DNA of 64,000 nt from Candidatus Hydrogenedentota bacterium (GTDB lineage Bacteria > Hydrogenedentota > Hydrogenedentia > Hydrogenedentales > SLHB01). Within the stretch, counting starts at the first letter, position 1, and each line of letters starts with the position of its first letter. Made by a program: the position numbers and the translations under genes. The stretch is from the NCBI GenBank assembly GCA_963745075.1, contig CAVUWV010000031.1, positions 283,209-347,208 on the forward strand, given 5' to 3'. Shown here piece after piece: positions 35,801 to 59,411 of this stretch. The notes beneath the pieces are model-generated. The model saw nothing but the letters and a program-made list of their open reading frames with translations. It was not told the origin of the DNA and made no database searches.

Positions 35801-37290
35801 GGCGGCGGAGGCGTTGGGTCGGTTGGGTAGCGCGAAGGCAATTCAACCGCTCCAGGACGCGCTACTCTTCGATACGGAAGGCAGCGTGAAATTTGCTTCT
35901 TGTAAGGCCCTGGGGCAAATCGGTGGTGAGGAAGCCGCCCGCGTGTTGAGCGATGTCGTGAATGGCCAGAGTCAAACGTACCTCAATCACGTCTCCGACA
36001 TTGCAGCGGCATTGAGCAACATCGACAATGCGATTTCGTCGGATGCACTGGCGCAGATCTTCAAGGATTTCGCCAACATACTCGGCGGTGGTTTCAGCCA
36101 GGTACAGTTTCTCGCGGCAAAAACTCTGGCTGAACGTGGCGACCCGCGTGGTAAGCCGATGCTCGAGGAACTCCGCGGAATCCCGGAATCCCGCATCGAC
36201 GCTACCAACGCGTTGCAGGAGTTGGAGCGGCAAGCCAATCCGGGACCCGAAGGCGGGGTCTCAAACACCGCCGATCGGTCGGCGGCCCCCGCGCAGAAAA
36301 CCTCCCAACTCGCCGGCCCGCGCCTCCAACTCCGCTGGGTAGTCAGAGGCGACGACGCCAAGGGCAAGACCGTCCTCCCCGCGCCGACGGAATCCGACCC
36401 GAACCGGACGCTCGCGGTCGGCGATGACATCGTTCTATCCGAAGCGGACATGGCGAAGGCGACGGTGAAGCAGGAGGAACAGGGGACCTACAGCATCGTG
36501 CTTCAGACCACGGATGAAGGCGCGGCAAAACTGGAAGCCGCCACGAAGGAATACATCGGTAAAACCTTGGCCATTGTTTTCGACGGGCAAGTCATCCTCG
36601 CCCCCAAGGTGCAAAGCAGCATCGGGAAATCGGTTTCCATCACGGGCCAATTCACCCGGGAGCAGGCGGAGGCAATTGCCCGCGCGATTCACCCGAGCGA
36701 TTCAGGTGAAGCACAACAAAGCGCCCGTCTCTACGGCCCGAGACTCCAGCTCCGCTGGGTCGTCGAAGGCGACGATGCCAAGGGGAAGTTGATCCTCCCG
36801 GCGCCGACCGACTCGGAGCCGGACCGGACGCTCGCCGTGGGTGACGACGTTGTTTTGTACGAAGGCGGCATTGTCACCGCGGGGGTCCAGAAGGAGCCGG
36901 ATTCGGACCGGTATGCCATCCGGTTTGTTACGAACGAGCAGTGGGCCAAGCGGCTCCACGACGCCACGGAGGAAAACCAGGGCAAACGACTCGCCATCAT
37001 CTTCGACGGCCGTATCGTGAGTACGCCGGTCGTGCGGGACCCCTTCGGCGAGACCGGCATGATAACCGGTGAACTTTTCCCAGGAAGAAGCCGATGCGAT
37101 TGCGAAAGCCATCGTGGGCAAAGAGGGACGAGGCAAGGATGAACCGCTTCCGGAACGATTTCTATATGATGCGGAAAGAAACTTTGGCCCAGCAGTCCGT
37201 AGAGAGCGGCTGAATATCCATGACCCCGACGCGGCGAAACCTGAGGTGTTACCGGAACCGTTTGTCGACGACATCGGATACGTGCGTTGA
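32821..37290 (+). CDS. BlaR1-like peptidase M56 sensor fused to HEAT/PBS-lyase repeats and two SecDF P1-head-like domains (frameshifts near ~33810, ~34158, ~34470-34520, ~37077)
   Basis: HFLWQG, PTVVGIVRPMILLP, HELAHIRRYD (HExxH), FFHPAVW, EREHCCD; repeats of type A.EALG.L.D.RAVEPLI.LL.D; duplicated PRLQLRWVV...LAI(V/I)FDG....P.V domain; ATGA coupling to blaI-like gene. Confidence 0.8.
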
Positions 37291-40703: not shown

Positions 40704-41612
40704 TTACTCTTCGTCCCTTGTAAGCCAGAACCGCATGGTCTTCGACACGATATCCGCCGCATCGTGATGGACCCAATGCCCGGCCCCCGGCACGGTGACC
40801 AAAGTCAAGTCCTTTTCCAGCCATTCCCAAGTACGATTCAGCATGGCGTGGCTCAAGGCCCGATCCTCCAAACCGTGAAACATCAACACGGGCAACGTCA
40901 CCTTGACCACCGGCGACGTGTTTTCCCGGTAGGGCTCGTACGGATAGTTCATCTTGTAGTACGCTAGCATGGCTTCGAAATCGGACTGCCGGAAGGCTTC
41001 CAAGTAACGCGCCTTGACGGTGTCATGCTCGTTTGGTGCGACCAGGGCAACCAGGGCTTCCGCCGTCAACATGGACGCGGCGTCCGGCCTCTGGAAGTCG
41101 CGGGCGTACTGGCTGTTTTTCTGCTGGTCCTCGTTGTGGGCCAACTCCCGCATGAACCCCCGGGGATGGGGCAGATTACAGATGACCAGCCGCTCGGTCA
41201 TCTCGGGATGGGCCATCGCAAACATCCACGCGATCGCACCGCCCCAGTCGTGTCCGACGATGGTGGCTTTGGACTGCCCGAAATGTCGAATCACGGCTTC
41301 CACATCGGCAACAAGGTGCGGTGCTGCGTACTGTTCGACGCCCTCCGGTTTGTCGCTCTGGTTGTACCCCCGCAAATCGATGGCGACGACGTGAAACCGG
41401 TCCGCCACGGCGGCCATCTGGTGGCGCCAACTGTACCAGAAGTCGGGAAACCCGTGAATCATAGCCACCAGTGGCCCGTCGCCAAGAGACACATAGTGAA
41501 TGCGCACGCCGTTGTTTTCAGCATAGCCGTGGGTTGCGCGGTCAAAAACGTCGTCCGAACCATTTGCATCCGTCAAACTGAAACAGGAAGTGAGTGCAGC
41601 AAACATGGCCAT
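40704..41612 (-). CDS. Alpha/beta hydrolase, epoxide hydrolase-like
   Basis: [27 protein letters not shown] (Asp nucleophile), GHWVH. Confidence 0.88.
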
Positions 41613-41908
41613 GAGGAATCTCCCGGAGGTAGGTTTCGTTTAGAGAAGTACCAGTATAACGGAATGACCTGCCGCCCAGGTTCGCAGTTTGCGCAGTTCG
41701 CCGTGACGCGGTACGTGTCTTGAACCGATTTTGGGCGCAACGTACAATGCCTGTGTGGCCGTACCTGCCGTACACTCGCCACGGCGCCGGGCGTCCGTCA
41801 CGGCCCTATTGTCACGGCGCGGATTCGCAGAGGTCGATCGCGGTGGTCTGCGTTCTTCCTTGTGAGTGACTGCGCTCCAATCAGGCCCAAGCCAAAAGAG
41901 GAGTCTGG

Positions 41909-42739
41909 ATGTCGAATTCGAGAGAAAGCGGCCTGAGTACGTATCTGGCCGAAATCTCCCGTATCCCGCTCCTTTCCACGTCCGAAGAGATTCGCCTGGC
42001 GACGTTGGCACAAAAAGGAAGTGCGGAAGCACGGCGCAAGCTTATCGTCTCCAATCTACGGCTGGTGGTGAGTATCGCGAAAAAGTATTTGTACTACGGG
42101 CTACCCCTTCAGGATCTCATCGAGGAAGGGAATCTCGGTTTGATGAAGGCGGTGGAACGCTACGATCCTACGCGGGGCTGCAAATTCTCGACCTACGCGA
42201 CGTGGTGGATCCGGCAGGCGATCACGCGAGCATTGTCTAATTACGGGCGTACGGTGCGAATTCCGGTGTACGTCACGGACAACGTGGCGCGGTACAAAAA
42301 GACGGCGGAAGAGCTATACATCAAAAGCGGCAAACGGCCCGATGCGGAAGAAGTGGCCGAAGCCATGGGCATCAAGTTGACCGAGGCCCTCAAACTTCAG
42401 TCCTTCGTCGACGAAGTCTCCCCGCTGGACAACCCGGAAACGATGAATGACGACAACGGGCGGGGCATCCCGGAGGCATTGGAGCCGCGCCGGGTGGATG
42501 AGGCGATTGCCCAGATCGAGATGGACCAGCAGCTCGAAGAGATTATGAAACAGTTGACCGAACGGGAGCAGAAAATTATCCGGTTCCGGTATGGGTTGAT
42601 GGACGGAAGGGCGCACACGCTCGAGCAGACCGGGCGCAAATTCAGCCTCACGCGCGAGCGAATCCGGCAAATCGAAAATGATGTAATGAAACGGCTGCGC
42701 AAATTTGTCACCGAACGAGCGGACGACTTCGGGCCGTGA
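41909..42739 (+). CDS. RNA polymerase sigma-70 family factor (group 2 / RpoS-like, lacks region 1.1)
   Basis: [53 protein letters not shown]. Confidence 0.92.
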
Positions 42740-42796
42740 TATGTGGGGGTGAAGCGAGGGGTTCCGATCGGGGGATTTTGGAATTGCATTCGCCCG

Positions 42797-42885
42797 AACC
42801 GTCATTCTAAGCGCCAGCGAAGAATCTCAACTTCGTACTCGACCAAAACCCCGAGATTCTTCGCTGGCGCTCAGCGATGACGGTT
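42797..42885. repeat. Long inverted repeat (GTCATTCT...GAAGAATCT type miniature element)
   Basis: AACCGTCATTCTAAGCGCCAGCGAAGAATCTC paired with GAGATTCTTCGCTGGCGCTCAGCGATGACGGTT. Confidence 0.75.
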
Positions 42886-42919
42886 TTAAGACCGGGGTTG
42901 CAGGAGAGGAGAAGACCAG

Positions 42920-43441
42920 ATGGATCTGGCATCGCTGATACGTAATGTGCCGGACTTCCCCGTGCCGGGGATCCAGTTCAAAGACATCACGACGCTGTTG
43001 CAGCATCCGGACGCGTTCCGGCACATCATCGACGGATGGAAGGCGCGGTACACGGACAAGGGCATCACGACTATCGTCGGCGCCGACGCGCGCGGGTTTA
43101 TTTTCGGCGGCGCTCTTGCCTATGCGATGGGTCTTCCGTTCGTGCCGGCGCGAAAGAAAGGAAAGTTGCCTGCCGACACGATCCATGAGGAGTACGAGCT
43201 GGAATATGGCACAGCCACGCTCGAGATTCACCGCGACTCCCTGAAACCGGGCGACAAGGTGGTGTTGATCGACGATCTGCTCGCCACGGGCGGGACCATG
43301 CGCGCCATCGCGAACATGGTCAAACGGCTGGGCGCGGAAATTGTAGAAATTGCTTTTGTGGTGGAGCTACCCCCGCTGAAGGGACGTGACAAACTGACCG
43401 AGTATCCCGTCTATTCGCTGGTGGAATTCATGGTGGAGTAA
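42920..43441 (+). CDS. apt: Adenine phosphoribosyltransferase
   Basis: PDFPVPGIQFKDIT, ARGFIFG, RKKGKLP, YELEYG, IDDLLATGGT. Confidence 0.96.
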   Translation: MDLASLIRNVPDFPVPGIQFKDITTLLQHPDAFRHIIDGWKARYTDKGITTIVGADARGFIFGGALAYAMGLPFVPARKKGKLPADTIHEEYELEYGTATLEIHRDSLKPGDKVVLIDDLLATGGTMRAIANMVKRLGAEIVEIAFVVELPPLKGRDKLTEYPVYSLVEFMVE

Positions 43442-43448
43442 TAGGACT

Positions 43449-44285
43449 ATGTCGACGCAAACAGTACCCGGTTCCGAAATTCAGGTCAACCGCGAGGTGG
43501 AACGTGGACGGCTCAAGCATGCCCTGTTCGATTTTGACGGCACGGTGAGTCTGCTTCGTGAAGGCTGGCAGCAGGTCATGGGTCCCCTCATGGCCGAGAT
43601 GATCTGCGACGGCGGTACGCCCACGCCGGAGATTGAAAAGGCCGTCGCCGATTACGTGGACGAATCCACGGGCATCAACACCATCCTTCAGATGGAACAT
43701 CTGGTCGAGATGGTTCGCGCTTATGGAATCGTCCCAGAGGACAAGATTCTCGACGCGCACGGGTACAAGAAGATATACAACGACCGGCTCATGGAACGGG
43801 TGCGGGAACGCATCGCGAAACTGGAATCGGGCGACCTGAAACCCGTTGATGTCACCGTGAACGGCTCGCTGGATTTTGTAAAAGCGGTCCACGATCGCGG
43901 CCTGAACATGTATATCTTCAGTGGAACGGATCGCGAAGACGTGCAGAACGAGGCCGGACTCGTCGGCGCGGCGCCGTATTTCTCAGAGATCTGGGGCGCG
44001 TTGCGCACTTACGCCGAGAGCAACAAGGAAATGATCATCAAGTCCATCATGGGCGAACATGATCTGCACGGGTCGGAAGTGCTGGTCGTCGGGGACGGCC
44101 CCGTCGAGATCCGCCTCGCGCACGAACACGATTGCGTTTCGGTCGGCGTCTGTTCCGACGAAGTGCGCGGCCACGGCTGGAGCGAGGAAAAACGTGAACG
44201 GCTGACTAAGGCGGGCGCCGACATTCTGATTCCCGATTTCAGTGATTGGCAAACGTTGATGGCGTATCTGTTCCCAGAGGCGTGA
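43449..44285 (+). CDS. HAD superfamily hydrolase
   Basis: Motif I FDFDGT, motif II SGT, motif IV VGDGPVE, GADILI. Confidence 0.88.
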   Translation: MSTQTVPGSEIQVNREVERGRLKHALFDFDGTVSLLREGWQQVMGPLMAEMICDGGTPTPEIEKAVADYVDESTGINTILQMEHLVEMVRAYGIVPEDKILDAHGYKKIYNDRLMERVRERIAKLESGDLKPVDVTVNGSLDFVKAVHDRGLNMYIFSGTDREDVQNEAGLVGAAPYFSEIWGALRTYAESNKEMIIKSIMGEHDLHGSEVLVVGDGPVEIRLAHEHDCVSVGVCSDEVRGHGWSEEKRERLTKAGADILIPDFSDWQTLMAYLFPEA

Positions 44286-44732: not shown

Positions 44733-45509
44733 CTACGACGCCCACAAGAACTGGCGCAGGTCATACCCTTTCCCCCGGACCGCCAACGCCGACGCATACG
44801 CCGGCTCCGTCTCCAGGGCAAACATGGACCACCGCGCGGCTTCGCCGGCGTCACCCTGTGTAGCCAACAACTCCGCAGGCTCTCCGGGCTTGAGCGACAC
44901 GTCGAAGGCGTCCAGTGGAAAGGACAGTCCCTCACCGCGCGCCTTGATGTACGCCTCCTTGCGCGTCCAGCAGTTCAAAAATCCCTGCTCGCGCTGGTCC
45001 TTGGGAAGCGTGCGCAAGGTATAAGCCTCCCGGGGAGAAAAGAACCGTTCGGCGATTCGCTGCCCCGCAAAATCCGGCCGATGTTTTTCGATGTCGATTC
45101 CCACGTCGCGATCCAGCACCATGGCATACACGGCAAGCCGGCCCGAGTGCGCCAGATTGAACCGGAGCGGCGGATCGTCGGAAGTATGTGCCAGAAAGGG
45201 CTTCCCGTGAGAACTGTAGGTAAAGGCAAGCAGGGCCGGCTCAACGTCGAGGTATCGCCCCAGGATGTTCCGCAAAATGCCGCGGCCAACGATGTAGTTC
45301 TCACGCCCCCCGGGGAAATGAAAGCGGCCGGCCCGTTCCCGTTCCTCGCCGCTGAGCGTTTCCCACAACGCTTCCACCACGGGTGCGGACTGATCCAACC
45401 GGGACCTCCAGACGTGCACCTCGCCGGTTGGCAGGCGCAGATTTGCCGGGGGCTCGGACCAGGTCGTGTCGTGTTCGCGATGTGTCATGCCGGCGCGTGC
45501 TCCATCCAT
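44733..45509 (-). CDS. Sfp/HetI-type 4'-phosphopantetheinyl transferase
   Basis: HGKPFL, FNLAHS, VGIDIE, WTRKEAYIKARGEGL. Confidence 0.95.
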   Translation of the reverse strand: MDGARAGMTHREHDTTWSEPPANLRLPTGEVHVWRSRLDQSAPVVEALWETLSGEERERAGRFHFPGGRENYIVGRGILRNILGRYLDVEPALLAFTYSSHGKPFLAHTSDDPPLRFNLAHSGRLAVYAMVLDRDVGIDIEKHRPDFAGQRIAERFFSPREAYTLRTLPKDQREQGFLNCWTRKEAYIKARGEGLSFPLDAFDVSLKPGEPAELLATQGDAGEAARWSMFALETEPAYASALAVRGKGYDLRQFLWAS

Positions 45510-45570: not shown

Positions 45571-48500
45571 TCACGCGTCGCCTTGGGGTTCGTATTCCAC
45601 GCGAGCCCGTTCCAGGCAGCTTTTCAGGGTCGTGCCGACCGTTTCGATGTAGGGCTTGATCAACATTACAGCGTGATTGCCGGGCACGGTGATGACTTCA
45701 AGCCCACCGTCCGCCACTTCGCCCCATCCAAGGGTTGGATCGTCGTGGAGCTTGTGCATGACGGACTGATCCTCCGCGCGCAGCAAGGAGATCTTGCCCG
45801 AATACGACTCGGGGATGTATTTGAGCAAGACTTTCCAATTGGCCTTCAACACCTTCATCGCGCGGCGCGTGGACGGCTGCTGGACGAGCAACAACCGCGA
45901 ATCGCGGGAAACCACGTTCGCAATGTCGGCGCGTTTCAGCAGTAGGTGGCGGATCGCGTCGGCCCACGCCCACGTCACATATTCCCAGAGCGACGGCGCG
46001 TTCTTGCCGCTGCGCCGCCTCTTGAGGGCCGACGGCAGAATGAGGTAGATCCCGTCGCGGATGTATGGGCCGGTGTGCCGAACCACGTCGAAACACATGA
46101 TGAGTTGGTTCCAACTCCATTTCAGCCGCTCCCGCCAGCTTTGCGTTCGGAGCGACCCTACACGGGCTTCGGTATCCATGATGGCGAGCAAAGCGACGGT
46201 GTGCCCGGCCTTTGTCAACTGCTGCGCGACCTCGAAGGCCACCGCGCCGCCAAACGACCACCCACCCAGGTAATACGGCCCTTCCGGTTGAATGGCACGG
46301 ATCGCAGCAACGTGCTCCGAAGCCAACTCCTCCATCGTCTCGTAAGGTTCCTGCGTCGGGTTCAGACTCGGATCCTGCAACGCGTAGAAAGGCGTGTCAT
46401 CGCCGATATACTGCGGCAAATTGAAGTAGGTGTAGGCGATTCCGCCCGCCGGCGCTACGCAGAAGAAGGGTGCATGATCCCCCTTCGGTTGTACGCGAAT
46501 CACGTGCTGCACGGTCCGCGCTACGGAAGGCTCGCCACCCGAACCCAAGGTTTCCTCGACCGGCAAGGAGTATCCAAGTTCGGTAGCGACGCGCCGCGCA
46601 TACCCCCCGAGACGCCGCGGCAACCGAATTCGTTTCCACACGGTTCCCAGGGCCGGGTCGATGTCCTGGTGGTTCATGAAATTAGGGTCGCCCACGGGGG
46701 CCGACGCCGAGTGCACCCCATCGGTCATCCGTTTTCCTTCATACGGCTTGAGTACCGCCGGATCGAAGGGAATTTCGAGGAACGCGCAAAGCGCTTTCAT
46801 CGTCTCTTCGGGTTTGCTGACGAGATCCTCGTAGTGCACGAGGTGATGTTTCGACTTGAGCAGGGGCGAGAGGAAGTCGCGGATATTCGCGTTGCTGACC
46901 GACCACACATCCTCGCCGAGGGACATGGAATCGGTTTCACCCTCGCTCATGAGGCGTTCAAACCGGTTCCGCATGAAGGACTCGATGGCGGAATAGGGGT
47001 GCCGCGCAAGATGAATGTACTTGGCCCCGTCAAACAGCCGTTCGGCGTGTTCGAGCGTTTCGATGCTCGAACCGTACGACGGAGACTTATCGATCAACAG
47101 CCGGGGGGCCACCTTCTCCTGGAGCATGGCGTAGACCTTTTCCACCGGCGTGGCCTGTTCCACGAGGTTGTCCAGCAGTGCCTTTGCTTCCTCCGCCGTC
47201 AACCCGTTCACCTCCATGAAGGCGCGCTGCAATCCTTCGCCGAGGTACGATTTTCCCAGGTCTTCGCTCCACTCGCGCATAGTGTTGAATTGCAGCAGGT
47301 GCAGTTCCGGCGGACAGAACAAGCCGGGATGGCCGGCCAGCATGACGCGGAGCAACGTCGACCCGCAGCGCGGGCCGGACAGCAAGAATGCAATTGGCTT
47401 GTTCTTCACGGCGGGGATCGTCGTCCGCAGACGCCGCCGGGCCGTCAGAACGCCCGCACGACCCGCCGGTGATGCGGGCGCGGCCGGTTCAACAACCTCC
47501 GGCTTGTGGCTTGCCATTTCTTTAGCAAGGTATGGCGCCAAATCCTGGATCGTCGGCCGCTCGAACACTTCTTTCGGGAACAGCTTCAATCCCAAATCGC
47601 GTTCGATACTGTTCAACACTTCCATCATCATGATGGAATCCAGCCCCAACTCGATAAAATTGCGATCGAGCGGAATAGTGTCTTCGTCACGATACAAGAC
47701 TTTGGCGAGTTCGCGACGCACGTATGCTTCGAGTTCTTCCGGGTGCGCGGACGGCGCGTGCGGTGGTTCAACCGTCGTTGGAGAGCCGTTTCCGGATTGT
47801 TTCTTCATCAAATCCGACAATGCGGGCAACCGGCTCAACATGGGCATCTGAGACCCCAGCCGGTCCCAATCCGCGTTCATGACGCCGACTTGCGCGGAAT
47901 CCGCACGCACGAGACATTCGAGCACGGCGAGGCCGTCTGCCGGCGGAATGCTTTGAATACCGGCTTGGGCCATCCGGTCCCCAGCCGAAGATGCCGCCGC
48001 CATGCCAACCTCCGCCCAAGGGCCCCAGTTGATGCACAGCGCGGATTGGCCCTTTGCATGCCGGTAGTGGGCAAGGCTGTCCATAAACGCGTTGGCGGCC
48101 GCATAATTCGCCTGCCCCGGCGAACCCATCATGGACGCGGCCGACGAGAACAGGATAAAGAAGTCGAGATCGCCGGCGCCCGTTCCGTTGAATGCACGAT
48201 GCAGGTGCCAACTTCCGTTGACTTTCGGCCGAAATACCTGGGTCAAGGCGTTGGCATCCATCTGCATCACGGCATGGTCGTCCAAAACGCCGGCCGCATG
48301 CACGACGCCTCGAATGGGCGGACGCCCCGCATTCCGGTATTCGTCTACAAACCGGCTCAGTTGATCGCCGTCGGCCACGTCCACCGATGCGACCTCCAGA
48401 TCGACGCCGCACGCTTCAAGCTCACGCAAAGCGCCAATGCGCTTGGCCACGGCCGATCCCGGTTCGACCGCGTCCCATTCCTGCCGCGGGGGCAGCGGCG

Positions 48501-51500
48501 TGCGGGAAAGCAGGATCAGGCGGCCGGCGCCGTTGCGCGCGAGCCACCGGCCAACTTCCAACCCCAGCCCGCCGAGTCCGCCGGTCACCAAGTACGCGCC
48601 ATCGCGCTTGCACTGAAATGCTTCCGAAGATTGCAGGCACGATTCGGACTCGACAAGCGACGCCGCAGATTGCAGACGCGCAACAAATCGTTGGCCGGCG
48701 CGGTAAGCGACCTGATCCTCGGCATCGGGGGAAAGGATTTCCGTTGCCAGCGCTCGGCAATTATCCGCCAAAGTAGCCTTATCCACGTCGACGATGCCAC
48801 CCCAGAGGTCACTGTGTTCGACGGCGAGGCACCGGCCGAAACCCCAGACCGGGGCCTGCATGGGAGGCGCACTCGCATCGCCGGTCCCTATTACTTGCGC
48901 GCCGCATGTTAGGAACCACAGTTGCCGCGCCGCGTCGGGTCGCCGCGCTGATTTTGTCCGGGACCCATACAGTGCCTTGGCAAGATGAAGCGCCGACGCG
49001 CACCCCAATTGCCGGGCGCGATCCAGATCGGCCGTCGACGCTTCTTCTGCGAAGGTGGCATCGGCACTCCAACAATGAATCACACGGTGCAGGGAACCGG
49101 CGAAGTCCGCGACAAGCGTTTCGTAATCGGCAGCCCGATCCGAATTCACCGTGGCGTGAGTATCGTCGACGCGGTCATACGCATCACCGTGCATAACACG
49201 GACACATCGATGCCCGAGAGCCTCAAGCTGTTGCGCCAACGTTTCGCCGGCCCCGGCCTCGTCCACGAACACCAGACATTGCAATGCAGCAGGCGCGGTT
49301 TTTGCCTCGGTACGCGATTTATCGACCCACTTCAACTGGTACAACCATTCGCTTAGACCGTTCAGACGCGCTGCGGAGTGTTCGGCAGGTTGGGCGACTG
49401 ACGCCGGAATAAGTTTTGCCGCAGGCATCGTCTTCCGCGCGGCAGGCGTCACATCCAGCCAATGGCGCTCCCGTTCAAAAGGGTACGTCGGCAGGTTCAC
49501 TCGATTCCGTACATAAGGCCCGTCAAAACCGCGCCAGTCTACCGGCACGCCACTTATAGACAGTTTCTGCAGGCTGCCCAGAACAACGGTCCAATCGTCT
49601 TTTCCCTTGGACAGGGACGGCAGCCAGACCGCCGCACCGCGGGGCAGGCATCGCGCACCCATCCCTGAGAGTACGGGCGCGGGACCCGACTCCAGGAACA
49701 GCGCATAGCCCGCCTCGTGCAGCGCGCGGATGCCCGCGTCAAATTGCACGGCCTGACGCAGATGTGCGCGCCAGTAGGCGGCGTCGAATACATCACCCTC
49801 GGTCACGAGCCTGCCAGTCAGGTTGGATACGACGGGAATCCGGGGCCCGCGGTACTGAACCTTGCGGGCCGCCGCCTCGAAATCCTCCAGCATAGGCTCC
49901 ATCAACGGCGAATGAAACGCGTGGGAGACGGTGAGGCGTTTGCAGGTAATCTTCTGCGCTTCGAACTGCTGTACCATCGCGTCGACCGCTTCCGCGTCGC
50001 CCGAGATCACCGTGTTCTTAGGACCGTTGGCCGCAGCGATGGAGACGCGGTCTGCGTGGCCGGTAAGCGCTTCCGCTACGGTGTCGCGGTCGGTCAATAC
50101 CGCCACCATGGCGCCGCCTTCCGGCAGGGCGCCCATGAGGCGGGCTCGCTCGGCAATCAGTTTCAACCCTTCTTCCAGATCGAAAACCCCCGCGACGCAC
50201 GCGGCCACGTACTCGCCGACGCTGTGCCCCATGACGGCGTCCGGTTCGATGCCCCACGACCGCCAGAGTTCGGCCAATGCGTATTCAATCGCGAAAAGCG
50301 CGGGTTGCGTGTAGGAGGTTTCATCGATGGGCGATTCGACGCCTTCTTCGGGATACAGCACGGACAACAACGGTTGTTCGCGAAGATCGCGAAGAATCGC
50401 ATCGCACCGGTCGAGGGCTTCACGGAACACGGGTTGGGTTTCGTACAACATGCGCCCCATGCCGACGTACTGCGAGCCTTGACCCGTAAACAGAAAGGCC
50501 ACCTTCGGCCGTACGCCGCGCCGTACCGCGCCGGCAGCACTGCGATCGCTGTTCTCTCCTGCGCAATAGGATTGCAGCGCTTCGATTAGTTCCATCGCTG
50601 AATTCCCGCGAGCAGCGAGCCGGTGTTCGAACAATGCACGGCACGTGTTGGCGGTGAAACAAACGTCGGCGGCTTCGGAAGCATCTTCGCCGCTTAGGCG
50701 CGCCGCATAACGCTCCGCCAAACGCGTTAACGCGGCCTCCGTGTGGGCTGACAACGTCAGCGCATGCTGCGGCCGTTCTCGAGGCGAGTCGATCGCCGGA
50801 ACATTGGCCGGCGCCTCTTCCAGAATGACGTGGGAATTCGCGCCGCCGAATCCAAACGAACTCACGCCCGCGCGACGTGGCACTTCGCGCTTGTCCCACG
50901 CTTTTCCACGAGTAACGATTTCGATGGGCGTGTCGTCCAGCTCGATGAGGGGATTTACTTCGTTGAGATGCAAATGCGGCACAAACGCGCCGTGATGGAG
51001 CATAAGCGCGGTTTTGATCAGCCCGGCCACCCCGGCCGCCGACTCCAAATGTCCGATGTTCGTCTTTGCCGACCCGAGGTACAACGTCTGGTTCGAACCG
51101 CGTCCTTCGAGAAGAACGGCTTTCAGCGAATCGACCTCGATGGGATCGCCCAGGGCCGTGCCGGTTCCGTGCGCTTCCACGTAATCGATATCCGGCGGTG
51201 ACAGGCCCGCGTTCGCTAACGCCTGACGAATGACCGCCTGTTGGGCCTGCCCGTTTGGCGCAGTCAGGCCGTTGCTGCGGCCGTCGTGATTGACCGCGCA
51301 ACCACGGATAACGGCATAGATGCGGTCACCATCGGCCTGGGCGGCAGAGAGCCGTTTCAACACCACCACGCCGCAGCCTTCACCGCGCACGTAACCGTCG
51401 GCACTCGCATCGAAGGTCTTACACCGGCCGTCCGGCGACATCATCCGGGCGTGGGAAAATATCATTTGAATTTCGGGAGAGAGAATGACGTTTACACCGC

Positions 51501-52368
51501 CCGCGAGCGCCAGCGTGCATTCATCGTCGCGCAAGCTGCGGACGGCCTGATGCACGGCGACGAGGGAAGACGAGCACGCCGTATCCACCGCGATGCTCGG
51601 GCCGCGCACATCCAGAAAATAGGAGAGCCGGTTTGCGGCCAGACTGTGGGCGTTGCCGGTCCCCGCGTAGGCGTCAATCAAATCGGGGTCGTTACATTGC
51701 AGGCGGGCGTAGTCGTTCGCGCTGATCCCCATGAACACGCCGGTCGGGCTGCCGCCCAAGGTGTCGGGCGGAATGTTCGCGTTTTCCAGCGCCTCCCACG
51801 CCACCTCCATGACCAACCGCTGCTGCGGGTCCATGCGCGCCGCTTCGCGCGGGGAAATACCGAAGAACCCGGCATCGAACCGGTCGATGTGGTCCAGGAA
51901 ACCGCCCTTGCGGGTATACATCTTGCCGATGGTCGCGGGAAACGGATCGTAATACGCATCGTTGTCCCAGCGATCCGCCGGAACGTCGGCGACCGCGTCT
52001 TTCCCTTGGGCGAGCAACGTCCAGAACGCTTCCGGACTATCCGCGCCGGGAAACCGGCAACCGATTCCGACGATGGCAACCGGTTCGTCCGGATTGGCAT
52101 CGGCAGAACGAACTTCGGTCTCGGAAGCGTCGGTGTCTGCCGCGAGGTATCCCGCGAGCGCTTCGATGCTCGGGTATTCCCAAAGAAGCGTTGGAGAAAG
52201 CTTGCGGTCGAGCCAGTCTTCCAAATCGCCGGATAGCGTCACCGCTTCGCGCGACGAAACGCCGAGACCGTCAAAAGAGCCATGGGGATCGATATCTTCC
52301 GCGGGCACACCGAGTTCTTCGGCCAAATGCGCGATGAGCCATTCCTGAATGGCCTGTTTCGTCTTCAC
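45571..52368 (-). CDS. Type I polyketide synthase ACP-KS-AT-KR-ACP-sulfotransferase-thioesterase (CurM/Ols-like architecture)
   Basis: ACP GVSS; KS DTACSSS, HGTGT, NIGHLE; AT GHSVG, HAFHS; KR GGLGGLG, HAAGVLDD, YAAAN; ACP GLDS; ST PRCGSTLLRVMLAGH, PPELHLL, DKSPSY, GDPNF; TE GWSFG, MDT, PGNH. Confidence 0.95.
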   Translation of the reverse strand: MKTKQAIQEWLIAHLAEELGVPAEDIDPHGSFDGLGVSSREAVTLSGDLEDWLDRKLSPTLLWEYPSIEALAGYLAADTDASETEVRSADANPDEPVAIVGIGCRFPGADSPEAFWTLLAQGKDAVADVPADRWDNDAYYDPFPATIGKMYTRKGGFLDHIDRFDAGFFGISPREAARMDPQQRLVMEVAWEALENANIPPDTLGGSPTGVFMGISANDYARLQCNDPDLIDAYAGTGNAHSLAANRLSYFLDVRGPSIAVDTACSSSLVAVHQAVRSLRDDECTLALAGGVNVILSPEIQMIFSHARMMSPDGRCKTFDASADGYVRGEGCGVVVLKRLSAAQADGDRIYAVIRGCAVNHDGRSNGLTAPNGQAQQAVIRQALANAGLSPPDIDYVEAHGTGTALGDPIEVDSLKAVLLEGRGSNQTLYLGSAKTNIGHLESAAGVAGLIKTALMLHHGAFVPHLHLNEVNPLIELDDTPIEIVTRGKAWDKREVPRRAGVSSFGFGGANSHVILEEAPANVPAIDSPRERPQHALTLSAHTEAALTRLAERYAARLSGEDASEAADVCFTANTCRALFEHRLAARGNSAMELIEALQSYCAGENSDRSAAGAVRRGVRPKVAFLFTGQGSQYVGMGRMLYETQPVFREALDRCDAILRDLREQPLLSVLYPEEGVESPIDETSYTQPALFAIEYALAELWRSWGIEPDAVMGHSVGEYVAACVAGVFDLEEGLKLIAERARLMGALPEGGAMVAVLTDRDTVAEALTGHADRVSIAAANGPKNTVISGDAEAVDAMVQQFEAQKITCKRLTVSHAFHSPLMEPMLEDFEAAARKVQYRGPRIPVVSNLTGRLVTEGDVFDAAYWRAHLRQAVQFDAGIRALHEAGYALFLESGPAPVLSGMGARCLPRGAAVWLPSLSKGKDDWTVVLGSLQKLSISGVPVDWRGFDGPYVRNRVNLPTYPFERERHWLDVTPAARKTMPAAKLIPASVAQPAEHSAARLNGLSEWLYQLKWVDKSRTEAKTAPAALQCLVFVDEAGAGETLAQQLEALGHRCVRVMHGDAYDRVDDTHATVNSDRAADYETLVADFAGSLHRVIHCWSADATFAEEASTADLDRARQLGCASALHLAKALYGSRTKSARRPDAARQLWFLTCGAQVIGTGDASAPPMQAPVWGFGRCLAVEHSDLWGGIVDVDKATLADNCRALATEILSPDAEDQVAYRAGQRFVARLQSAASLVESESCLQSSEAFQCKRDGAYLVTGGLGGLGLEVGRWLARNGAGRLILLSRTPLPPRQEWDAVEPGSAVAKRIGALRELEACGVDLEVASVDVADGDQLSRFVDEYRNAGRPPIRGVVHAAGVLDDHAVMQMDANALTQVFRPKVNGSWHLHRAFNGTGAGDLDFFILFSSAASMMGSPGQANYAAANAFMDSLAHYRHAKGQSALCINWGPWAEVGMAAASSAGDRMAQAGIQSIPPADGLAVLECLVRADSAQVGVMNADWDRLGSQMPMLSRLPALSDLMKKQSGNGSPTTVEPPHAPSAHPEELEAYVRRELAKVLYRDEDTIPLDRNFIELGLDSIMMMEVLNSIERDLGLKLFPKEVFERPTIQDLAPYLAKEMASHKPEVVEPAAPASPAGRAGVLTARRRLRTTIPAVKNKPIAFLLSGPRCGSTLLRVMLAGHPGLFCPPELHLLQFNTMREWSEDLGKSYLGEGLQRAFMEVNGLTAEEAKALLDNLVEQATPVEKVYAMLQEKVAPRLLIDKSPSYGSSIETLEHAERLFDGAKYIHLARHPYSAIESFMRNRFERLMSEGETDSMSLGEDVWSVSNANIRDFLSPLLKSKHHLVHYEDLVSKPEETMKALCAFLEIPFDPAVLKPYEGKRMTDGVHSASAPVGDPNFMNHQDIDPALGTVWKRIRLPRRLGGYARRVATELGYSLPVEETLGSGGEPSVARTVQHVIRVQPKGDHAPFFCVAPAGGIAYTYFNLPQYIGDDTPFYALQDPSLNPTQEPYETMEELASEHVAAIRAIQPEGPYYLGGWSFGGAVAFEVAQQLTKAGHTVALLAIMDTEARVGSLRTQSWRERLKWSWNQLIMCFDVVRHTGPYIRDGIYLILPSALKRRRSGKNAPSLWEYVTWAWADAIRHLLLKRADIANVVSRDSRLLLVQQPSTRRAMKVLKANWKVLLKYIPESYSGKISLLRAEDQSVMHKLHDDPTLGWGEVADGGLEVITVPGNHAVMLIKPYIETVGTTLKSCLERARVEYEPQGDA

Positions 52369-52448
52369 GTGAACTTCTTCTCCACCACTTTCAAATCGAG
52401 AGGGCACGAACTTCGCGTGCGATTCGTGTCTGTTGCGCCACCAGAGCT

Positions 52449-54242
52449 TCAGCCGGTGGTCAGTACTTCCAACGTATTGGTCAAGAAACGTTTGCGGTTG
52501 GCTCGCCGCTGAATCTTGCCGCTGCTGGTTTTGTCAATCGTCCGGGGGGCGATCAGGCAAACCCGATGCACCCGAAGATCGTGATTCTCGGCGATCGCCC
52601 GGCGCACCGCCGATATGACGTCTTTGCCGTCACCGTCTTGGGGCAAAACGGCCTCCGCGATCACGGCAAGTTTCTCCTGACCGTCGATATCGAGCGAAAA
52701 TGCCGCGCAACATCCGGGGCGAATCGCCGAATGACTCCGTTCCACGGTATGCTCGATATCCTGCGGGTAGTGGTTCAACCCGTCGACAATAATCATATCC
52801 TTGATACGGCCCGTTACGAAAACGAACCCGTGCTTCACGAAACCCAGGTCACCCGTCCGCAAGAAGGGACCTTCGTCGGTGTCGGCGAGCCGCGCGTGAA
52901 ACGTTTCCTCGGTCTCCTCGGGGCGGTTCCAGTAGCCGTCGGCAACCGTGGTGCCGGACACCCAGATTTCGCCGACGGTATCCGGCGAACACTGGATGCA
53001 CGACTCGGGGTCGACGATGATCACGCGGGTGTCGTGGCAGGTTCGCCCGCACCCCACCAAGGTGCGCACGTCGTCGCCGGGTGCTTTCGCTTCGACGACG
53101 CGATGCCGCTCCAGTTCCGAGGCGACGACCGGCAACAACATCGGTTTCAGCTTTGCCGTCGTCGACACCATTAAGGTGGCTTCGGCCAAACCGTACCCGG
53201 GATGCAGCGCATCCCACCGAAATCCACAGGACCGGAACGTCTCCGCGAACCGCTCCAGCGTTTCCGGCCGAATGGGTTCCGCGCCGTTGCCCGCACTCCG
53301 CCAACTACCGAGGTCCAACGTCGCACGCTGTTCCGGTGTTATTTTGCGCGTACACAGGTCATACGCGAAGTTGGGCGCGCAACTGTGCGTTGCCTTGTAC
53401 CGGGAAATTGCCCGGAGCCAGCGCAACGGCCGCTGGAGAAACGCGAGCGGCGACATCATGTAGCACGTTGCGCCCAGATAGATCGGCAAGAGGAGGCCGA
53501 AGATAAGCCCCATGTCATGGAAGGCCGGCAGCCACGTCACAAAACGAAATTCGTCCTCCCTCTCCCACATGGCGCCCATGTTCAACATATTATAGAGCAG
53601 GTTGCGATGGGTCACCATCACGCCCTTGGGCTCCGAGGTCGATCCCGAAGTGTATTGAAGAAACGCAACAGTATCGGGCAAAACTTGCGGATCGTTCCAG
53701 GTCGTTGCCAGATCATTCGAGACCGTATCCGTGGCCAGCCATTCGAATTCGCCGAAGTACGAATCGTACGCGGCGAAACCCTTCTCCATTTCCAACAAGC
53801 AGGTCACGGTCAGGGCCAAGGTGGTACCTGCATCCCGCGCAACCACTTTGAGACGGGGGAGACTGCGATTCAGCCGGCCGGGGTCGGGCGGATACACGGG
53901 TACGGCGACGACACCGGCATACAGGCACCCAAAAAACGCCGCGACATAGTCCAGCCCCGGAGGATACAGCATCAACACACGGTCGCCGGGATTGCACCGT
54001 TCCAGCAATGCGACGGCAATGGCCCGGGCACGCCGGTCCACCGCGCCGAAGGTGTACCGGGCCCCTTCTTCCTCCCCGTCGTCCAGAAACGTATAGGCCA
54101 TGTGGTCGGGACGATGGAGCGCGCGATTCTGCAACAGTTCGACCAGCGTCTCACCATGCGCGGACCAAGTATCCATCTCGGGCGCAATCCCTGGTGAATC
54201 CATCTGAGGCCGGACACGGTCTGCCCGGATTTGTTGTGTCAT
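52449..54242 (-). CDS. Fatty acyl-AMP ligase (FAAL)
   Basis: AFLQYTSGSTSEPKGV, WLPAFHDMGLI, APNFAY, YGLAEATL, FAAL-type insertion before LVGCG, RTGDLG, GRIKD, KTSSGKIQR. Confidence 0.93.
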   Translation of the reverse strand: MTQQIRADRVRPQMDSPGIAPEMDTWSAHGETLVELLQNRALHRPDHMAYTFLDDGEEEGARYTFGAVDRRARAIAVALLERCNPGDRVLMLYPPGLDYVAAFFGCLYAGVVAVPVYPPDPGRLNRSLPRLKVVARDAGTTLALTVTCLLEMEKGFAAYDSYFGEFEWLATDTVSNDLATTWNDPQVLPDTVAFLQYTSGSTSEPKGVMVTHRNLLYNMLNMGAMWEREDEFRFVTWLPAFHDMGLIFGLLLPIYLGATCYMMSPLAFLQRPLRWLRAISRYKATHSCAPNFAYDLCTRKITPEQRATLDLGSWRSAGNGAEPIRPETLERFAETFRSCGFRWDALHPGYGLAEATLMVSTTAKLKPMLLPVVASELERHRVVEAKAPGDDVRTLVGCGRTCHDTRVIIVDPESCIQCSPDTVGEIWVSGTTVADGYWNRPEETEETFHARLADTDEGPFLRTGDLGFVKHGFVFVTGRIKDMIIVDGLNHYPQDIEHTVERSHSAIRPGCCAAFSLDIDGQEKLAVIAEAVLPQDGDGKDVISAVRRAIAENHDLRVHRVCLIAPRTIDKTSSGKIQRRANRKRFLTNTLEVLTTG

Positions 54243-54687
54243 GAAAAACTCTCCATACCCACGTGTATCGCGCCGCAACGGCGCCCCCGGAACCCCGTTC
54301 CGTCAATATCTCGACATTGGTTCAACCTTAATCCCGAACGGGAAACAATTACGATCGTGCTTTTGACCATACGAAGGGCATCAAGGTTACATACCCCTGC
54401 CCCATCTTATGGTATCACAAGGAGTTGCAGGGACGCGGAAATGGTATCCTACAAGTAAATCCCCGGTACCGGTTTGGACCCGCACCCGCAACCTCTCCCG
54501 CCGATGCGCCCAAATCTGCAAATCCATACAAAATCATGACTTCCAACGCGGGAAACAAATGCCGAGCATACCAATTCGGCATGGGAAAACACAAACGGCA
54601 ACCACTCGCCCGCGTGCGAGTACGCATTGAATTGCGGTACAACGCAAGCCGTATTCGGGACAACGCCGCTGGAAAGGAGATGGTCCT

Positions 54688-56222: not shown

Positions 56223-57788
56223 CTACCGCTGGAGTCGCACCGGCGGAGCGGTTGCGGCGGGTGCACGCAACGGCTTAGGCATCGGCCGGGGCGCTGGGAT
56301 CGGGCGACCGAAGGACATCACGACGCGATACGTCACGACAGCCTCGCCGTCTTTCGGCACGTCGACCGTGAACACTGCAGTGCGGGCATCCTTCTTCACA
56401 AAATCCTGGGACTTCTCGCGGATGTCCCAATCGCCCGGCATCGGCTCGACGATATCCACGGTAACCGGTACCTCTTTGTGGTTGCGAATCTTGATCTCGT
56501 AGGCGGATTCAAAGACGTTGTCGGCGATTACCTGGTAGTCGGTTTGCGTGCGTTCGCCAACGATGTCAAAGGCGTTGCCGAGACGGAGCCGTACTTCTTC
56601 GTCTTTTGGCGTGTGCTTGATGCGATCCTCGCCCGCGAACTGGAGCATGCCTTCGGAATCTTCCTGGTAAACGCGCATGGTCCCCGCGGGCAACGGGATC
56701 CCGAGATGGTTCTTCTCTTCGTTCTGAAACACCAGGAACACACCGACGTTTTCGTGCGTCAAGGGCGCAATCTTCTGACTGTAATACGAACCGTTCCCGC
56801 GATACTCGTACGCTTTCTTCGCGGAAACGCCATCAGCCGTGAGCAGGCTGACTTGTTTGGATTGGTTTTGTTTTATCGTCGTACGCCGCGGCATGGAGTA
56901 CAGGTGGTACTCCGCGAAGGATTCCTCAACAGGAAGCGCTTTTCGTGCCATTGCCACCCCGCCTCCACCACCGAATCCGCCTCCACCCGCCTGTACGATA
57001 TTTACGTCGCCCGCGACGAGTTTCAGCTTCGCGTTGGTATACGTGGCACCGGATTGATTGTTCAGGGTGACCCACCCTTCGAGATCCAGCGACGCGTCGT
57101 CCTTGGCCAAGGTAATCACGTAATCGGCCTGCCAGGAAAGGCCGCCGGTGAGATAGGTCGCTTCGATGGTTTGATCCGTGCCTTGATTGTCGAGGAGCCA
57201 GATGAGCGACGGCCGCGCGATCAGGTTCTCCGGAATCTCCGGCAAGACAACCTGGCCGGGATAGCCGAGATAAATCTCGTCGCCCACTTTGTAGATGGGA
57301 CCTTCGTTGACACTCAGCAATTCGGCATCGGTCCGTCCCACGTTGATTTCGTTATTGAAGTTGACCAGCGATACCTGTTTGCCGACGTACTTCTCCATCA
57401 GTTTCGAGGGGCTGATGAGGTCGTATTCGTAGTTCTGCTCGAGGATTTGCAGGGTACCCGGCGCCGAAACTGACTTGAGGCTTACCGTTTCCGGCTGGAT
57501 TTGTTGAGCCACGTCGGCAAAACGCAGTTCCTGTTCACCCGGCAGGAGTTTGATGGCGCGCGTGTCTCGCACCAGGGCGAGATTGTTGTTGTATACGGTG
57601 ACGGCGACGTCTTTCTGATCGGCCAGGGTGGTCTCGGGGCCGATTCCCGCGGCTTTCAGCGGATCGCTGAGGGATAGCGAACTCACCCGTACGGTACGTG
57701 GTCCCGCGCTGATCTGTACGTTCTGCAACTCCGCAAAGGATACGGTTGCCGCAAGAACCGCCGCAAACCAAACTGCCATTCGTCTCAT
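56223..57788 (-). CDS. Secreted DUF4139/DUF4140 domain protein, paralog C
   Basis: Signal peptide; VTVYNNNLALVRD, EQNYEYDL, YLTGGLSWQADY, LKLVAGDVN, EYHLY, GIPLPAG. Confidence 0.85.
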   Translation of the reverse strand: MRRMAVWFAAVLAATVSFAELQNVQISAGPRTVRVSSLSLSDPLKAAGIGPETTLADQKDVAVTVYNNNLALVRDTRAIKLLPGEQELRFADVAQQIQPETVSLKSVSAPGTLQILEQNYEYDLISPSKLMEKYVGKQVSLVNFNNEINVGRTDAELLSVNEGPIYKVGDEIYLGYPGQVVLPEIPENLIARPSLIWLLDNQGTDQTIEATYLTGGLSWQADYVITLAKDDASLDLEGWVTLNNQSGATYTNAKLKLVAGDVNIVQAGGGGFGGGGGVAMARKALPVEESFAEYHLYSMPRRTTIKQNQSKQVSLLTADGVSAKKAYEYRGNGSYYSQKIAPLTHENVGVFLVFQNEEKNHLGIPLPAGTMRVYQEDSEGMLQFAGEDRIKHTPKDEEVRLRLGNAFDIVGERTQTDYQVIADNVFESAYEIKIRNHKEVPVTVDIVEPMPGDWDIREKSQDFVKKDARTAVFTVDVPKDGEAVVTYRVVMSFGRPIPAPRPMPKPLRAPAATAPPVRLQR

Positions 57789-57809
57789 GTTCGTGTTTCC
57801 TCCCAGCAT

Positions 57810-59252
57810 CTAATACTTCACGCGCACGCGGTACGACACGGTGACTTCACCGTCTTTCGCAACCGGCACCGAGAACACCGCCGTGTGTGCGTCCTTTTTG
57901 GTGAAATCGTGAGACTTGCTCAGAATCTCCCAGTCCGACGGCATGGGCTCCACAATATCGACAACAATGTCGCTCTCTTTGTGATTCCGAACGGTCACGT
58001 CAAAGGCCGCTTCAGACGTGTGGTACCCAAGTACTTGGAAATCAGTCTGGACCCTTTCGCCGATCACGTCAAACGCGTCGCCCATGCGCAGCGTAACGGT
58101 CTCGTCCTTGGGCGTGTGCTTGATGTTGTCTTCACCGGCGAACTGGAGCATCCCTTCGCTGTCTTCCTGGTAGATCCGCATGACGCCCGCCGGCAGGGGA
58201 ATCCCGAGGCCGTTGGCTTCTTCGTTTTCGAACTCCAAGAAGACGCCGACGTGCTCCTCGCCTGTCGGTGGAATCTGCTGGCTGTAGTAATTGACCTGGC
58301 CCCGGTATTCGTACTTCTTCGCACACTTGACGCCGCTGCCATTGAGCAACGCCAATTGCTTGGACTGGTTCTGCTTAATGGTGGTCCGCCGCGGCATGGT
58401 GTACAAGTGGTACTCGGCGAAGGCCTCCTCTTTCGGCATCGGTGGGGCCGCGGCAGGTCGTGCCGAAAAGTCCATAACCATGGCGACATCTCCCAGGACC
58501 GGTTGGACGACGTTAACGTCGCCCGCTACGAGCTTCAGCTTGGCGTTGGTGTATGTCGCGCCGGACTGGTTGTTCATGGTCACCCAGCCCGCCAGGTCCA
58601 GGGACTGGTCATCCTTCGCGAGCGTCACCACGTAGTCCGCTTTCCAGCTCACGCCATTGGTAAGGTAGGTCACTTCAAGCGTCTGGTCGGCCCGGTCGTT
58701 GGACAGCAGCCAGATCAACGACGGTTCGGCGATGAGGTTGTCCGGGATTTCCGGCAGCACGACATTGCCGGGATGCCCGAGGTAGATTTCCTTGCCGACC
58801 TTGTAGACCGGCCCTTCGTTCACGCTGAGCAACTTGGCGGGTGTGCGGCCCAGGTCGACCTGGTTGCTGAAGTTCTGGAGATAGACGTCCTTCCCGACGT
58901 ATTTCTCCATCAACTTCGAGGGACTGATCAGGTCGTATTCGTAGTTCTGTTCCAGAATCCCCACGGACCCCGGCGAGGACGCGGACTGCAGACTCACGGT
59001 CTCGGGCCGGATCTGCTGGGCCACGTCCATGAATTGGAGCGACAGTTCGCCCGTCGGCAGATGCACCTTACGCGTGTCGCGCACCAGGGCGAGACCGTTG
59101 TTGTACGCGGTAACGGCCACGTCGGTCTGATCGCCCAGGGACGTCTCGGCGCTACCCGTCTCCTGAGCGGTTGCGCCCGCCGCGAATAGAACGATCACAA
59201 GTGCCGCCGATACATGCCGACGCAAACGAGCGAGAAACTGGGGAAATAACAT
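57810..59252 (-). CDS. Secreted DUF4139/DUF4140 domain protein, paralog B (start uncertain)
   Basis: Same motif series; signal-like VSAALVIVLFAAGATA; the ORF extends upstream through the repeat element. Confidence 0.85.
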   Translation of the reverse strand: MLFPQFLARLRRHVSAALVIVLFAAGATAQETGSAETSLGDQTDVAVTAYNNGLALVRDTRKVHLPTGELSLQFMDVAQQIRPETVSLQSASSPGSVGILEQNYEYDLISPSKLMEKYVGKDVYLQNFSNQVDLGRTPAKLLSVNEGPVYKVGKEIYLGHPGNVVLPEIPDNLIAEPSLIWLLSNDRADQTLEVTYLTNGVSWKADYVVTLAKDDQSLDLAGWVTMNNQSGATYTNAKLKLVAGDVNVVQPVLGDVAMVMDFSARPAAAPPMPKEEAFAEYHLYTMPRRTTIKQNQSKQLALLNGSGVKCAKKYEYRGQVNYYSQQIPPTGEEHVGVFLEFENEEANGLGIPLPAGVMRIYQEDSEGMLQFAGEDNIKHTPKDETVTLRMGDAFDVIGERVQTDFQVLGYHTSEAAFDVTVRNHKESDIVVDIVEPMPSDWEILSKSHDFTKKDAHTAVFSVPVAKDGEVTVSYRVRVKY

Positions 59253-59411
59253 CCCCCTTGATCCCCCTTCAAAGGGGGAATTGACCGCAACGCTTCGCGT
59301 TGCGTGTTCGGCCGGAGCGAACTCGACTTTCGGGTATGCGTTAGCACAGTTTCGAGTGTATGCGGATAGGCAAGCTTCCCCCTTTGAAGGGGGATCAAGG
59401 GGGATGTTATT
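59245..59411. mobile_element. MITE/REPIN-like element with perfect 36-bp terminal inverted repeats
   Basis: AATAACATCCCCCTTGATCCCCCTTCAAAGGGGGAA (59245-59280) is the exact reverse complement of 59376-59411; same family as 39517-39901. Confidence 0.75.

Follow-up and report, generated by a model that had tools for sequence, protein, structure and literature searches.

To our knowledge, no assembly-line route other than the cassette of acyl carrier protein (ACP), sulfotransferase (ST) and thioesterase (TE) domains leads to terminal alkenes via sulfate activation, and in every characterized example that we know of the ST is paired with a TE from one special family. The cassette is used as an engineering part for the production of hydrocarbons. 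Two such systems lie closest to the locus described here: the terminal module of CurM from curacin A biosynthesis (ST structure 4gbm, TE structure 3qit) and the olefin synthases (Ols) of Picosynechococcus/Synechococcus sp. PCC 7002 and its cyanobacterial homologues. The CurM TE is less than 15% identical to other TEs and binds the beta-sulfate through an Arg residue beside its catalytic triad, which Gehret and co-workers reportedly described in 2011 as Ser-His-Glu. In this report we analyze a stretch of 64,000 nucleotides from a Candidatus Hydrogenedentota bacterium (hereafter the window; GenBank assembly GCA_963745075.1, contig CAVUWV010000031.1, positions 283,209 to 347,208 of the forward strand), which carries a polyketide synthase (PKS) gene whose CurM-type ST is followed by an ordinary TE of the kind that terminates nonribosomal peptide synthetases (NRPSs).

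A full-text literature search, conducted mostly outside subscription journals and supplements and so leaving room for a prior report, did not turn up any account in which an ST precedes a TE of Pfam family PF00975. The available portions of a 2025 review of fatty-acid-AMP ligases (FAALs) and of a 2025 Ols paper describe only the route that combines an ST with a CurM-type TE. The initial annotation of this DNA had proposed an undescribed output for an ST-containing PKS, a claim of novelty that stands for the literature searched and only that far. The output may be free (3R)-3-sulfooxy fatty acids or their simple esters, in which the sulfate added by a curacin-type ST would be kept rather than expelled, and we regard this outcome as possible, with a probability somewhat short of even.

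The thioesterase belongs to the ordinary NRPS/PKS family

The domains on which the argument turns are encoded as follows.

45571..52407, minus strand: PKS gene, 2278 amino acids, ACP-KS-AT-KR-ACP-ST-TE (KS, ketosynthase; AT, acyltransferase; KR, ketoreductase); single open frame, domains by Pfam
46483..47445, minus strand: ST domain of the CurM/Ols type, residues 1655-1975; PDB 4gbm 2.2e-97 and 4gox 3.9e-90, PF13469 (Sulfotransfer_3) 3.9e-30
45574..46500, minus strand: TE domain of the PF00975 long-lid clade, residues 1970-2278; Pfam, PDB search, tree and AlphaFold2 (AF2) model
45820..46173, minus strand: lid subdomain of the TE, residues 2079-2196; six predicted helices, net charge +15

The TE makes up the last 309 residues of the PKS, directly before the stop codon at 45571-45573. 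All of the strings from which the initial annotation had recognized an ordinary type I TE are present (PFFCVAPAGG ... GPYYLGGWSFGG ... LAIMDT ... PGNH), and this assignment is borne out by several comparisons. First, when PF00975 is compared with the abhydrolase families by profile search, PF00975 (Thioesterase) is matched well above its cut-off (1.3e-27; 97.9 bits against 26.4), and Pfam lists no abhydrolase family for the whole PKS protein at E ≤ 0.01. Only positions 2-115 of the 226 in the profile are matched, owing to the long insertion that comes after the catalytic Asp. The catalytic residues are Ser2051 (46255-46257), set in a GGWSFGG nucleophile elbow, Asp2078 (46174-46176), 27 residues past the Ser, and His2245 (45673-45675). 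In an alignment of 32 sequences the columns of the Ser (TE position 82) and the Asp (109) are nearly invariant and that of the His (276) is invariant, and each of the three residues is 100% kept among 37 members that adjoin an ST.

Second, a phmmer comparison of the TE with all PDB sequences gave 38 matches at E ≤ 0.01, every one of them a type I or type II TE; the best is 7crn (7e-23), followed by 4zxh, NocB, EntF, Pks13 and fatty acid synthase (FAS) TEs, and 3qit, the CurM TE, is not among the 38. As a positive control we used the C-terminal 292 residues of an Ols-like protein from Cyanothece (P0081), which was found through its ST. This control matches 3qit at 5.3e-83, carries the string LVGHSMGS, and has epoxide hydrolases and haloperoxidases as its next relatives, in agreement with the earlier statement that CurM/Ols TEs form a distinct branch with a GHSxG nucleophile. 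Across 261 collected proteins, phmmer searches with the window TE and with the CurM-type TE matched no domain in common, and so neither a 3qit match nor a cross-match places the window TE inside the CurM/Ols clade. A joint alignment of the two kinds of TE would be meaningless because of this lack of any cross-match; the joint tree was therefore replaced by the Pfam and PDB tests with their positive control and by a tree of PF00975 domains only.

Third, fold searches with Foldseek and VIA-align returned type I and type II TEs in all of the best 50 rows (Z 28.0-21.5), led by NocB, AB3403, 7crn, EntF, Pks13, Vlm2 and FAS TEs. The Foldseek value for 4zxh is 3.5e-17, and the NocB TE gives a VIA Z of 28.0 with a root-mean-square deviation of 2.7 over 212 residues. 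The structure 3qit is not within these best 50 rows, although a distant fold relation is possible given that both are alpha/beta hydrolases. Thus, the window TE is a member of the ordinary PF00975 NRPS/PKS family and stands outside the CurM/Ols abhydrolase branch.

The TE of CurM and that of the window have no detectable similarity: the elbow reads GHSMG in the CurM type and GWSFG in the window, the triad here is Ser-Asp-His, and the lids differ. Both the best sequence matches and the best fold matches are NRPS terminal TEs (AB3403, 4zxh; NocB, 6ojc/6ojd; the epimerizing and cyclizing 7crn; EntF), and the nearest uncharacterized relatives are those of condensation-adenylation-thiolation-TE (C-A-T-TE) modules. 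Even so, two differences set the window TE apart from these structures. The NRPS TE domains measure 222-264 residues in their entirety, whereas the window lid alone has about 118, and they are fused to a peptidyl carrier domain rather than to a PKS sulfotransferase. We also considered whether another TE of the same genome had recently been copied to give the window TE, and rejected this because the others are at most 46% identical to it and the NRPS line on contig C24, described below, ends in a short-lid TE.

The sulfotransferase is of the CurM/Ols type and occurs with several partners

The ST matches the CurM ST (4gbm) at 2.2e-97 over 285 aligned residues, with the PELHLL and GSTLLR stretches kept and an identity of about 58%, and it matches the Ols ST (4gox) at 3.9e-90; the next PDB matches are tyrosylprotein sulfotransferases, at 1e-11. 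Pfam places it past the ACP of a KR-bearing module (KR 1270-1466, ACP 1562-1626, ST 1673-1883), which reproduces the KR-ACP-ST-TE offloading layout of the CurM terminal module. The likeness to Ols extends further, since the order FAAL, ACP, KS, AT, KR, ACP, ST is the same and the ST halves of the cyanobacterial homologues are 52-60% identical to the window ST. The differences from Ols are that the window FAAL is a separate gene, that the window TE belongs to PF00975 and not to the PF00561/PF12697 abhydrolases, and that the host is a member of the Hydrogenedentota. Judged by sequence, the ST is close to the CurM/Ols type, and so the ST and TE halves of this protein have different affinities.

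To place the ST among its relatives we built an unrooted tree of 135 ST domains, taken from the collected proteins and from the second ST of this genome, and labelled each by its downstream partner. Two deep clades are separated with 100% support, one of 31 NRPS-associated rows and one of 104 PKS-type rows. Partners within the PKS-type clade comprise 40 CurM-type TEs, 35 long-lid PF00975 TEs, 8 short-lid PF00975 TEs, 13 internal positions and 8 protein ends (over all 135 STs, 25 are internal and 9 stand at a protein end). The window ST lies in a clade of 17 rows (99% support), every member of which is followed by a PF00975 TE, and the partner labels require 24 changes on the whole tree. The initial annotation had spoken of a TE swap. 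The coupling of a CurM-type ST to a PF00975 TE and the 24 label changes make this a fair description only if it is taken to mean that partners changed repeatedly, since an unrooted tree does not show the order in which partners were acquired. We also observed that NRPS proteins from several other phyla (P0034-P0036, P0042, P0047-P0053 and others) end in C-A-T-ST-TE, some of them with two STs, and that it is the STs of these proteins that form the deep 31-row clade apart from the PKS-type STs (100% support).

The tree of TEs gives a similar picture. With the TE as query, a representative search matched 38161 proteins at E ≤ 0.001, of which 2044 reached E ≤ 1e-30. The best 150 included 140 new proteins, of which 86 match the TE unbroken through the whole lid, and an ST is present in 9; Pfam annotation of 30 of these proteins showed 24 NRPSs ending in T-TE (mostly C-A-T-TE), 3 short TE-only proteins and 3 with ST-TE. 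A tree of 213 TE domains contains a long-lid clade of 119 rows with 99% support (75 without ST, 37 ST-adjacent, 4 ST-distal and 3 short-lid), within which the window TE falls in a group of 24 rows that are all ST-adjacent (support 90) and whose neighbours are NRPS TEs. Within the long-lid group the ST-adjacent label requires 8 changes, with starred branches forcing at least 6 of them, and within the short-lid group it requires 11, with at least 3 forced in the same manner. Long-lid TEs also terminate lines of the form ST-C-A-T-TE (P0021, P0030, P0032). From these distributions the pairing of an ST with a PF00975 TE looks opportunistic, as though the ST had been coupled many times to unspecialized PF00975 TEs. 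Two tandem PF00975 TEs (TE-TE) were seen at the ends of many proteins (P0125, P0129-P0131, P0136-P0138 and others), and a record assigned to an uncultured Nitrospiraceae bacterium (L002) holds a TE 93% identical to those of the window and of a Hydrogenedentota record (L001), although its bin label may be wrong.

The basic lid is a trait of a large thioesterase clade

Between the Asp and the His, the initial annotation had noted a segment of about 100 residues rich in Trp, Arg and Lys. The segment is indeed basic and rich in Trp, but it is longer than stated: 166 residues separate Asp2078 from His2245, and about 118 of these form the lid. The lid (residues 2079-2196) contains 5.9% Trp, 12.7% Arg and 6.8% Lys with a net charge of +15, as opposed to 1.0% Trp and a net charge of -14 for the remainder of the TE. 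An AF2 model made from the 32-sequence alignment has a mean pLDDT of 83.3, with an alpha/beta core above 90 and a lid at 56-75 whose helices span TE positions 122-142, 144-164, 171-188, 193-199, 201-205 and 211-227.

It had further been suggested that this lid is an adaptation for binding sulfate or membrane, an idea that the wider family does not bear out. In our sample, 80 of the 121 full-length long-lid members occur in proteins that lack any ST, mostly in NRPS C-A-T-TE modules, and their lids are alike in length and charge. Median lid length is 118 residues with an ST and 117 without, Arg content 12.7% and 11.95%, and median net charge +12 and +10.5, respectively; the motifs PY.RDG.Y, W.W.D..R, SRL and P..RR are common to both sets. 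By these sequence comparisons, the long basic lid is common to a large clade of terminal TEs from NRPSs and was not built for sulfate. Nevertheless, a basic lid acquired by inheritance may help to hold an anionic or lipid chain.

Several lid Arg residues are more frequent in ST-adjacent than in ST-free members (R2182, 97% against 57%; R2171, 84% against 36%; R2153, 78% against 29%), and raw frequencies also differ with ST adjacency at E2080, E2142, L2187, Q2214 and V2241. The Arg differences are confounded because the members of each set are related. A paired test found no column that tracks ST adjacency within the long-lid clade, although with 4 independent pairs on starred branches, or 7 on all branches, this test is underpowered.

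A three-gene operon and a proposed pathway

Besides the ST and TE, the window encodes the following components of the putative pathway.

52449..54278, minus strand: stand-alone FAAL gene, 609 amino acids, adjoining the PKS gene on its 5' side and on the same strand; Pfam AMP-binding 3.9e-73 and AMP-dom_DIP2-like
44733..45509, minus strand: Sfp/HetI-type phosphopantetheinyl transferase (PPTase) gene, 62 bp past the PKS stop; PF01648 3.6e-19 and PF22624
50965..52086, minus strand: KS domain, residues 108-481; PF00109 1.8e-103, PF02801 1.6e-44
49546..50496, minus strand: AT domain, residues 638-954, HAFH motif; PF00698 2.7e-65
48010..48600, minus strand: KR domain, residues 1270-1466, LDD motif; PF08659 4.6e-65
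47530..47724, minus strand: second carrier domain (ACP), residues 1562-1626; PF00550

By Pfam, the locus therefore possesses the olefin synthase set of parts, namely a FAAL plus ACP-KS-AT-KR-ACP-ST. The FAAL matches NCBIfam fatty-acid-AMP ligase subfamilies at 1.8e-136 and the PPTase matches NCBIfam HetI at 7e-64, in each case under the cut-offs of those models (full-length cut-offs for the FAAL). Motifs read in the PKS include DTACSSS, EAHGTGT and NIGHLE in the KS, GHSVGE and HAFH in the AT, LGLDS in the ACP and PELHLL in the ST, and catalytic motifs are intact in all seven domains (Cys and two His in the KS, LDD and Tyr in the KR, Ser/Asp/His in the TE). We take the HAFH motif to mark a malonyl-type AT and the LDD motif a B-type KR.

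On the basis of this architecture, the FAAL would adenylate a fatty acid and load it onto the first ACP, the KS and AT would extend the chain by one malonyl unit, and the B-type KR would yield a (3R)-3-hydroxyacyl-ACP, whose 3-hydroxyl the CurM-type ST would then sulfate with 3'-phosphoadenosine 5'-phosphosulfate (PAPS). The TE would accept this chain on Ser2051 and, leaving the sulfate in place, either free it through simple hydrolysis or pass it to a small acceptor. The expected product would be a (3R)-3-sulfooxy fatty acid, an anionic lipid longer than its primer by two carbons. We infer the steps as far as 3-sulfooxyacyl-ACP from colinearity and from the CurM/Ols precedent, for which the portions of two sources on which we draw (PMC11730487, PMC5655351) give the order as sulfation of the beta-hydroxyl followed by action of the TE. 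A gene for adenosine 5'-phosphosulfate (APS) kinase is present in the same genome.

The gene order YjeF_N, PhzF, FAAL, PKS, PPTase is shared with the Hydrogenedentota record L001, from a metagenome-assembled genome, in which a FAAL orthologue occupies the same position and the gene in the PPTase position is 73% identical to that of the window. The closest relatives in a large protein collection likewise carry the names Candidatus Hydrogenedentes or Hydrogenedentota. When 135 Hydrogenedentota genomes were surveyed, 46 had some match and 14 had a contiguous ST-TE: 5 of 6 in the window genus (the sixth genome being 72% complete), 5 of 5 and 3 of 3 in two other genera, and one genome of another family. 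Orthologues from three genera retain the intact fusion, with identities of 46-91%. Because a contiguous ST-TE occurs in only 14 of 135 genomes, we reject the idea that the pathway belongs to the core lipid metabolism of the phylum and regard it as an accessory trait.

Two related gene arrangements bear on how such STs are used.

L008:3567-11156, plus strand (G000 contig C24, about 127566-145725): C24 ST-bearing synthase and downstream genes of the same genome
L018:6381-7277, minus strand: extra TE gene of a sister genus, adjoining the ST-TE genes; also in G096, G097, G098 and G099

The second ST of the genome, 51% identical to the first, ends a FAAL-ACP-KS-AT-KR-ACP-ST protein that has no TE. 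The NRPS genes that come next start with a TubC-type docking domain and C-A, continue with A-T-C-A and so on, and finish with a short-lid PF00975 TE; orthologues exist in all five other genomes of the genus. Such mid-line arrangements, in which FAAL-PKS-ST feeds an NRPS, draw on the same PKS-type ST clade and the same phylum as the window, and differ in that the chain is passed to a condensation domain instead of being released at once by a TE. The C24 line is probably a lipopeptide line, perhaps a sulfated one, and by its gene order the lineage employs the same cassette in a setting where sulfation cannot lead on to decarboxylative release. In the sister genus, the extra gene encodes a stand-alone long-lid TE of 298 residues between the PKS and PPTase genes, with the same flanking genes; it has the Ser of the GGWSFG motif and the His of PGNH, and the placement of its Asp is uncertain. 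No such gene occurs in the window, where the PKS-PPTase gap is only 62 bp.

Among other neighbours, genes for an Abhydrolase_1 protein, a sigma-70 factor and a HAD hydrolase flank the operon in both genera (window 40704-44285; L018:1023-4480). Three successive genes at 56223-60956 on the minus strand (528, 556 and 485 amino acids) each give a weak DUF4139 match, and an unusual 851-residue protein at 34587-37142 on the plus strand has many HEAT/PBS-lyase repeats fused to SecDF P1-head domains.

Is the sulfate retained or expelled?

We tentatively propose, while holding it to be somewhat less probable than the remaining outcomes taken together, that the three-gene operon makes a beta-sulfated acyl chain and that the TE releases it as a 3-sulfooxy fatty acid with the sulfate retained. 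Three considerations incline us toward retention. First, the ST has often been coupled to unspecialized NRPS TEs. Second, the PKS-type ST clade also serves in mid-line positions, from which no decarboxylative release can come directly. Third, beta-sulfooxy carboxylates are not inherently labile. Such compounds, serine O-sulfate for example, are stable in water, and so a dedicated catalyst is probably required if CO2 and sulfate are to be lost.

A number of points weigh on the other side. The domains follow exactly the olefin synthase order, and the ST shares about 58% identity with the CurM ST, whose known role is to make a leaving group. Among the genes of the operon there is neither an exporter nor a further tailoring gene nor one for making an acceptor, and the lack of the first two is shared with Ols, a system whose product remains in membranes. 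No 3-sulfooxy fatty acid is known to us from nature. Elimination is also conceivable for the mid-line STs, which are thus no proof of retention, the lid was modelled at low pLDDT (56-75), and the protein sample was gathered by searches seeded with the window PKS, such that its counts are not natural frequencies.

Several of these points speak directly for a functional analogue of Ols, an outcome that is the main rival of retention and that we consider only slightly less probable. In such a system, the PF00975 TE would hydrolyze the 3-sulfooxyacyl chain, and CO2 and sulfate would leave to give a 1-alkene longer than the primer by one carbon; this loss would occur either spontaneously or in the TE pocket, where a conserved lid Arg would replace the sulfate-binding Arg of CurM. 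In its favour are a domain order that matches Ols apart from the separate FAAL gene, an ST very close to those of CurM and Ols, and a minimal operon without an exporter, and both the better conservation of R2182, R2171 and R2153 in ST-adjacent members and the persistence of the fused ST-TE over three genera (46-91% identity) fit as well. However, the TE family differs from the only TE known for decarboxylative release, and the Arg conservation is confounded by relatedness, with no column passing the independent-pairs test (4 or 7 pairs). Moreover, many couplings of the ST to unspecialized PF00975 TEs fit poorly with a demanding new catalysis, and the same genome runs the same kind of ST on C24, where decarboxylation cannot follow.

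Sulfate might instead depart, or the chain be transferred, in some other manner: elimination to a 2- or 3-alkenoic acid, closure of a beta-lactone, or acyl transfer to give an ester lipid. The Pks13 TE transfers its chain to an acceptor. The lipid-handling TEs of Pks13 (Z about 26) and FAS (Z about 25) are among the nearest folds to the window TE, the best partial NCBIfam match is Pks13, and the extra stand-alone TE in the sister-genus loci hints at a two-step release there. We judge these outcomes unlikely, given that the extra TE is absent from the window, that the operon has no acceptor-making gene, and that the sequence favours none of them over the others. Finally, the patchy spread of contiguous ST-TE (14 of 135 genomes) might suggest a fusion that is inactive or in decay and makes no defined product, but this is highly improbable for a 2278-codon frame that is open, with motifs intact in all seven domains, orthologues that retain the full ST-TE at 46-91% identity, and an operon that retains its own PPTase.

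Implications

In several other phyla, as in at least 14 genomes of the Hydrogenedentota, relatives of this locus join the same ST to a TE of the ordinary NRPS type. The locus thus amounts to a natural experiment on whether decarboxylative elimination comes from catalysis by the CurM-type TE or from hydrolysis alone. Should the product be an alkene, olefin engineering would gain a second TE scaffold, unrelated to the first. If the sulfate is retained, the TE family that follows the ST would set the outcome of ST-containing synthases, and ST domains would be a general tailoring device that yields a new kind of sulfated lipid. The product of the window operon would then represent an as yet undescribed class of anionic sulfolipids that bacteria make by assembly-line synthesis, and the many ST plus PF00975 TE and mid-line ST lines of uncultured bacteria would constitute a hidden family of sulfated lipids and lipopeptides.

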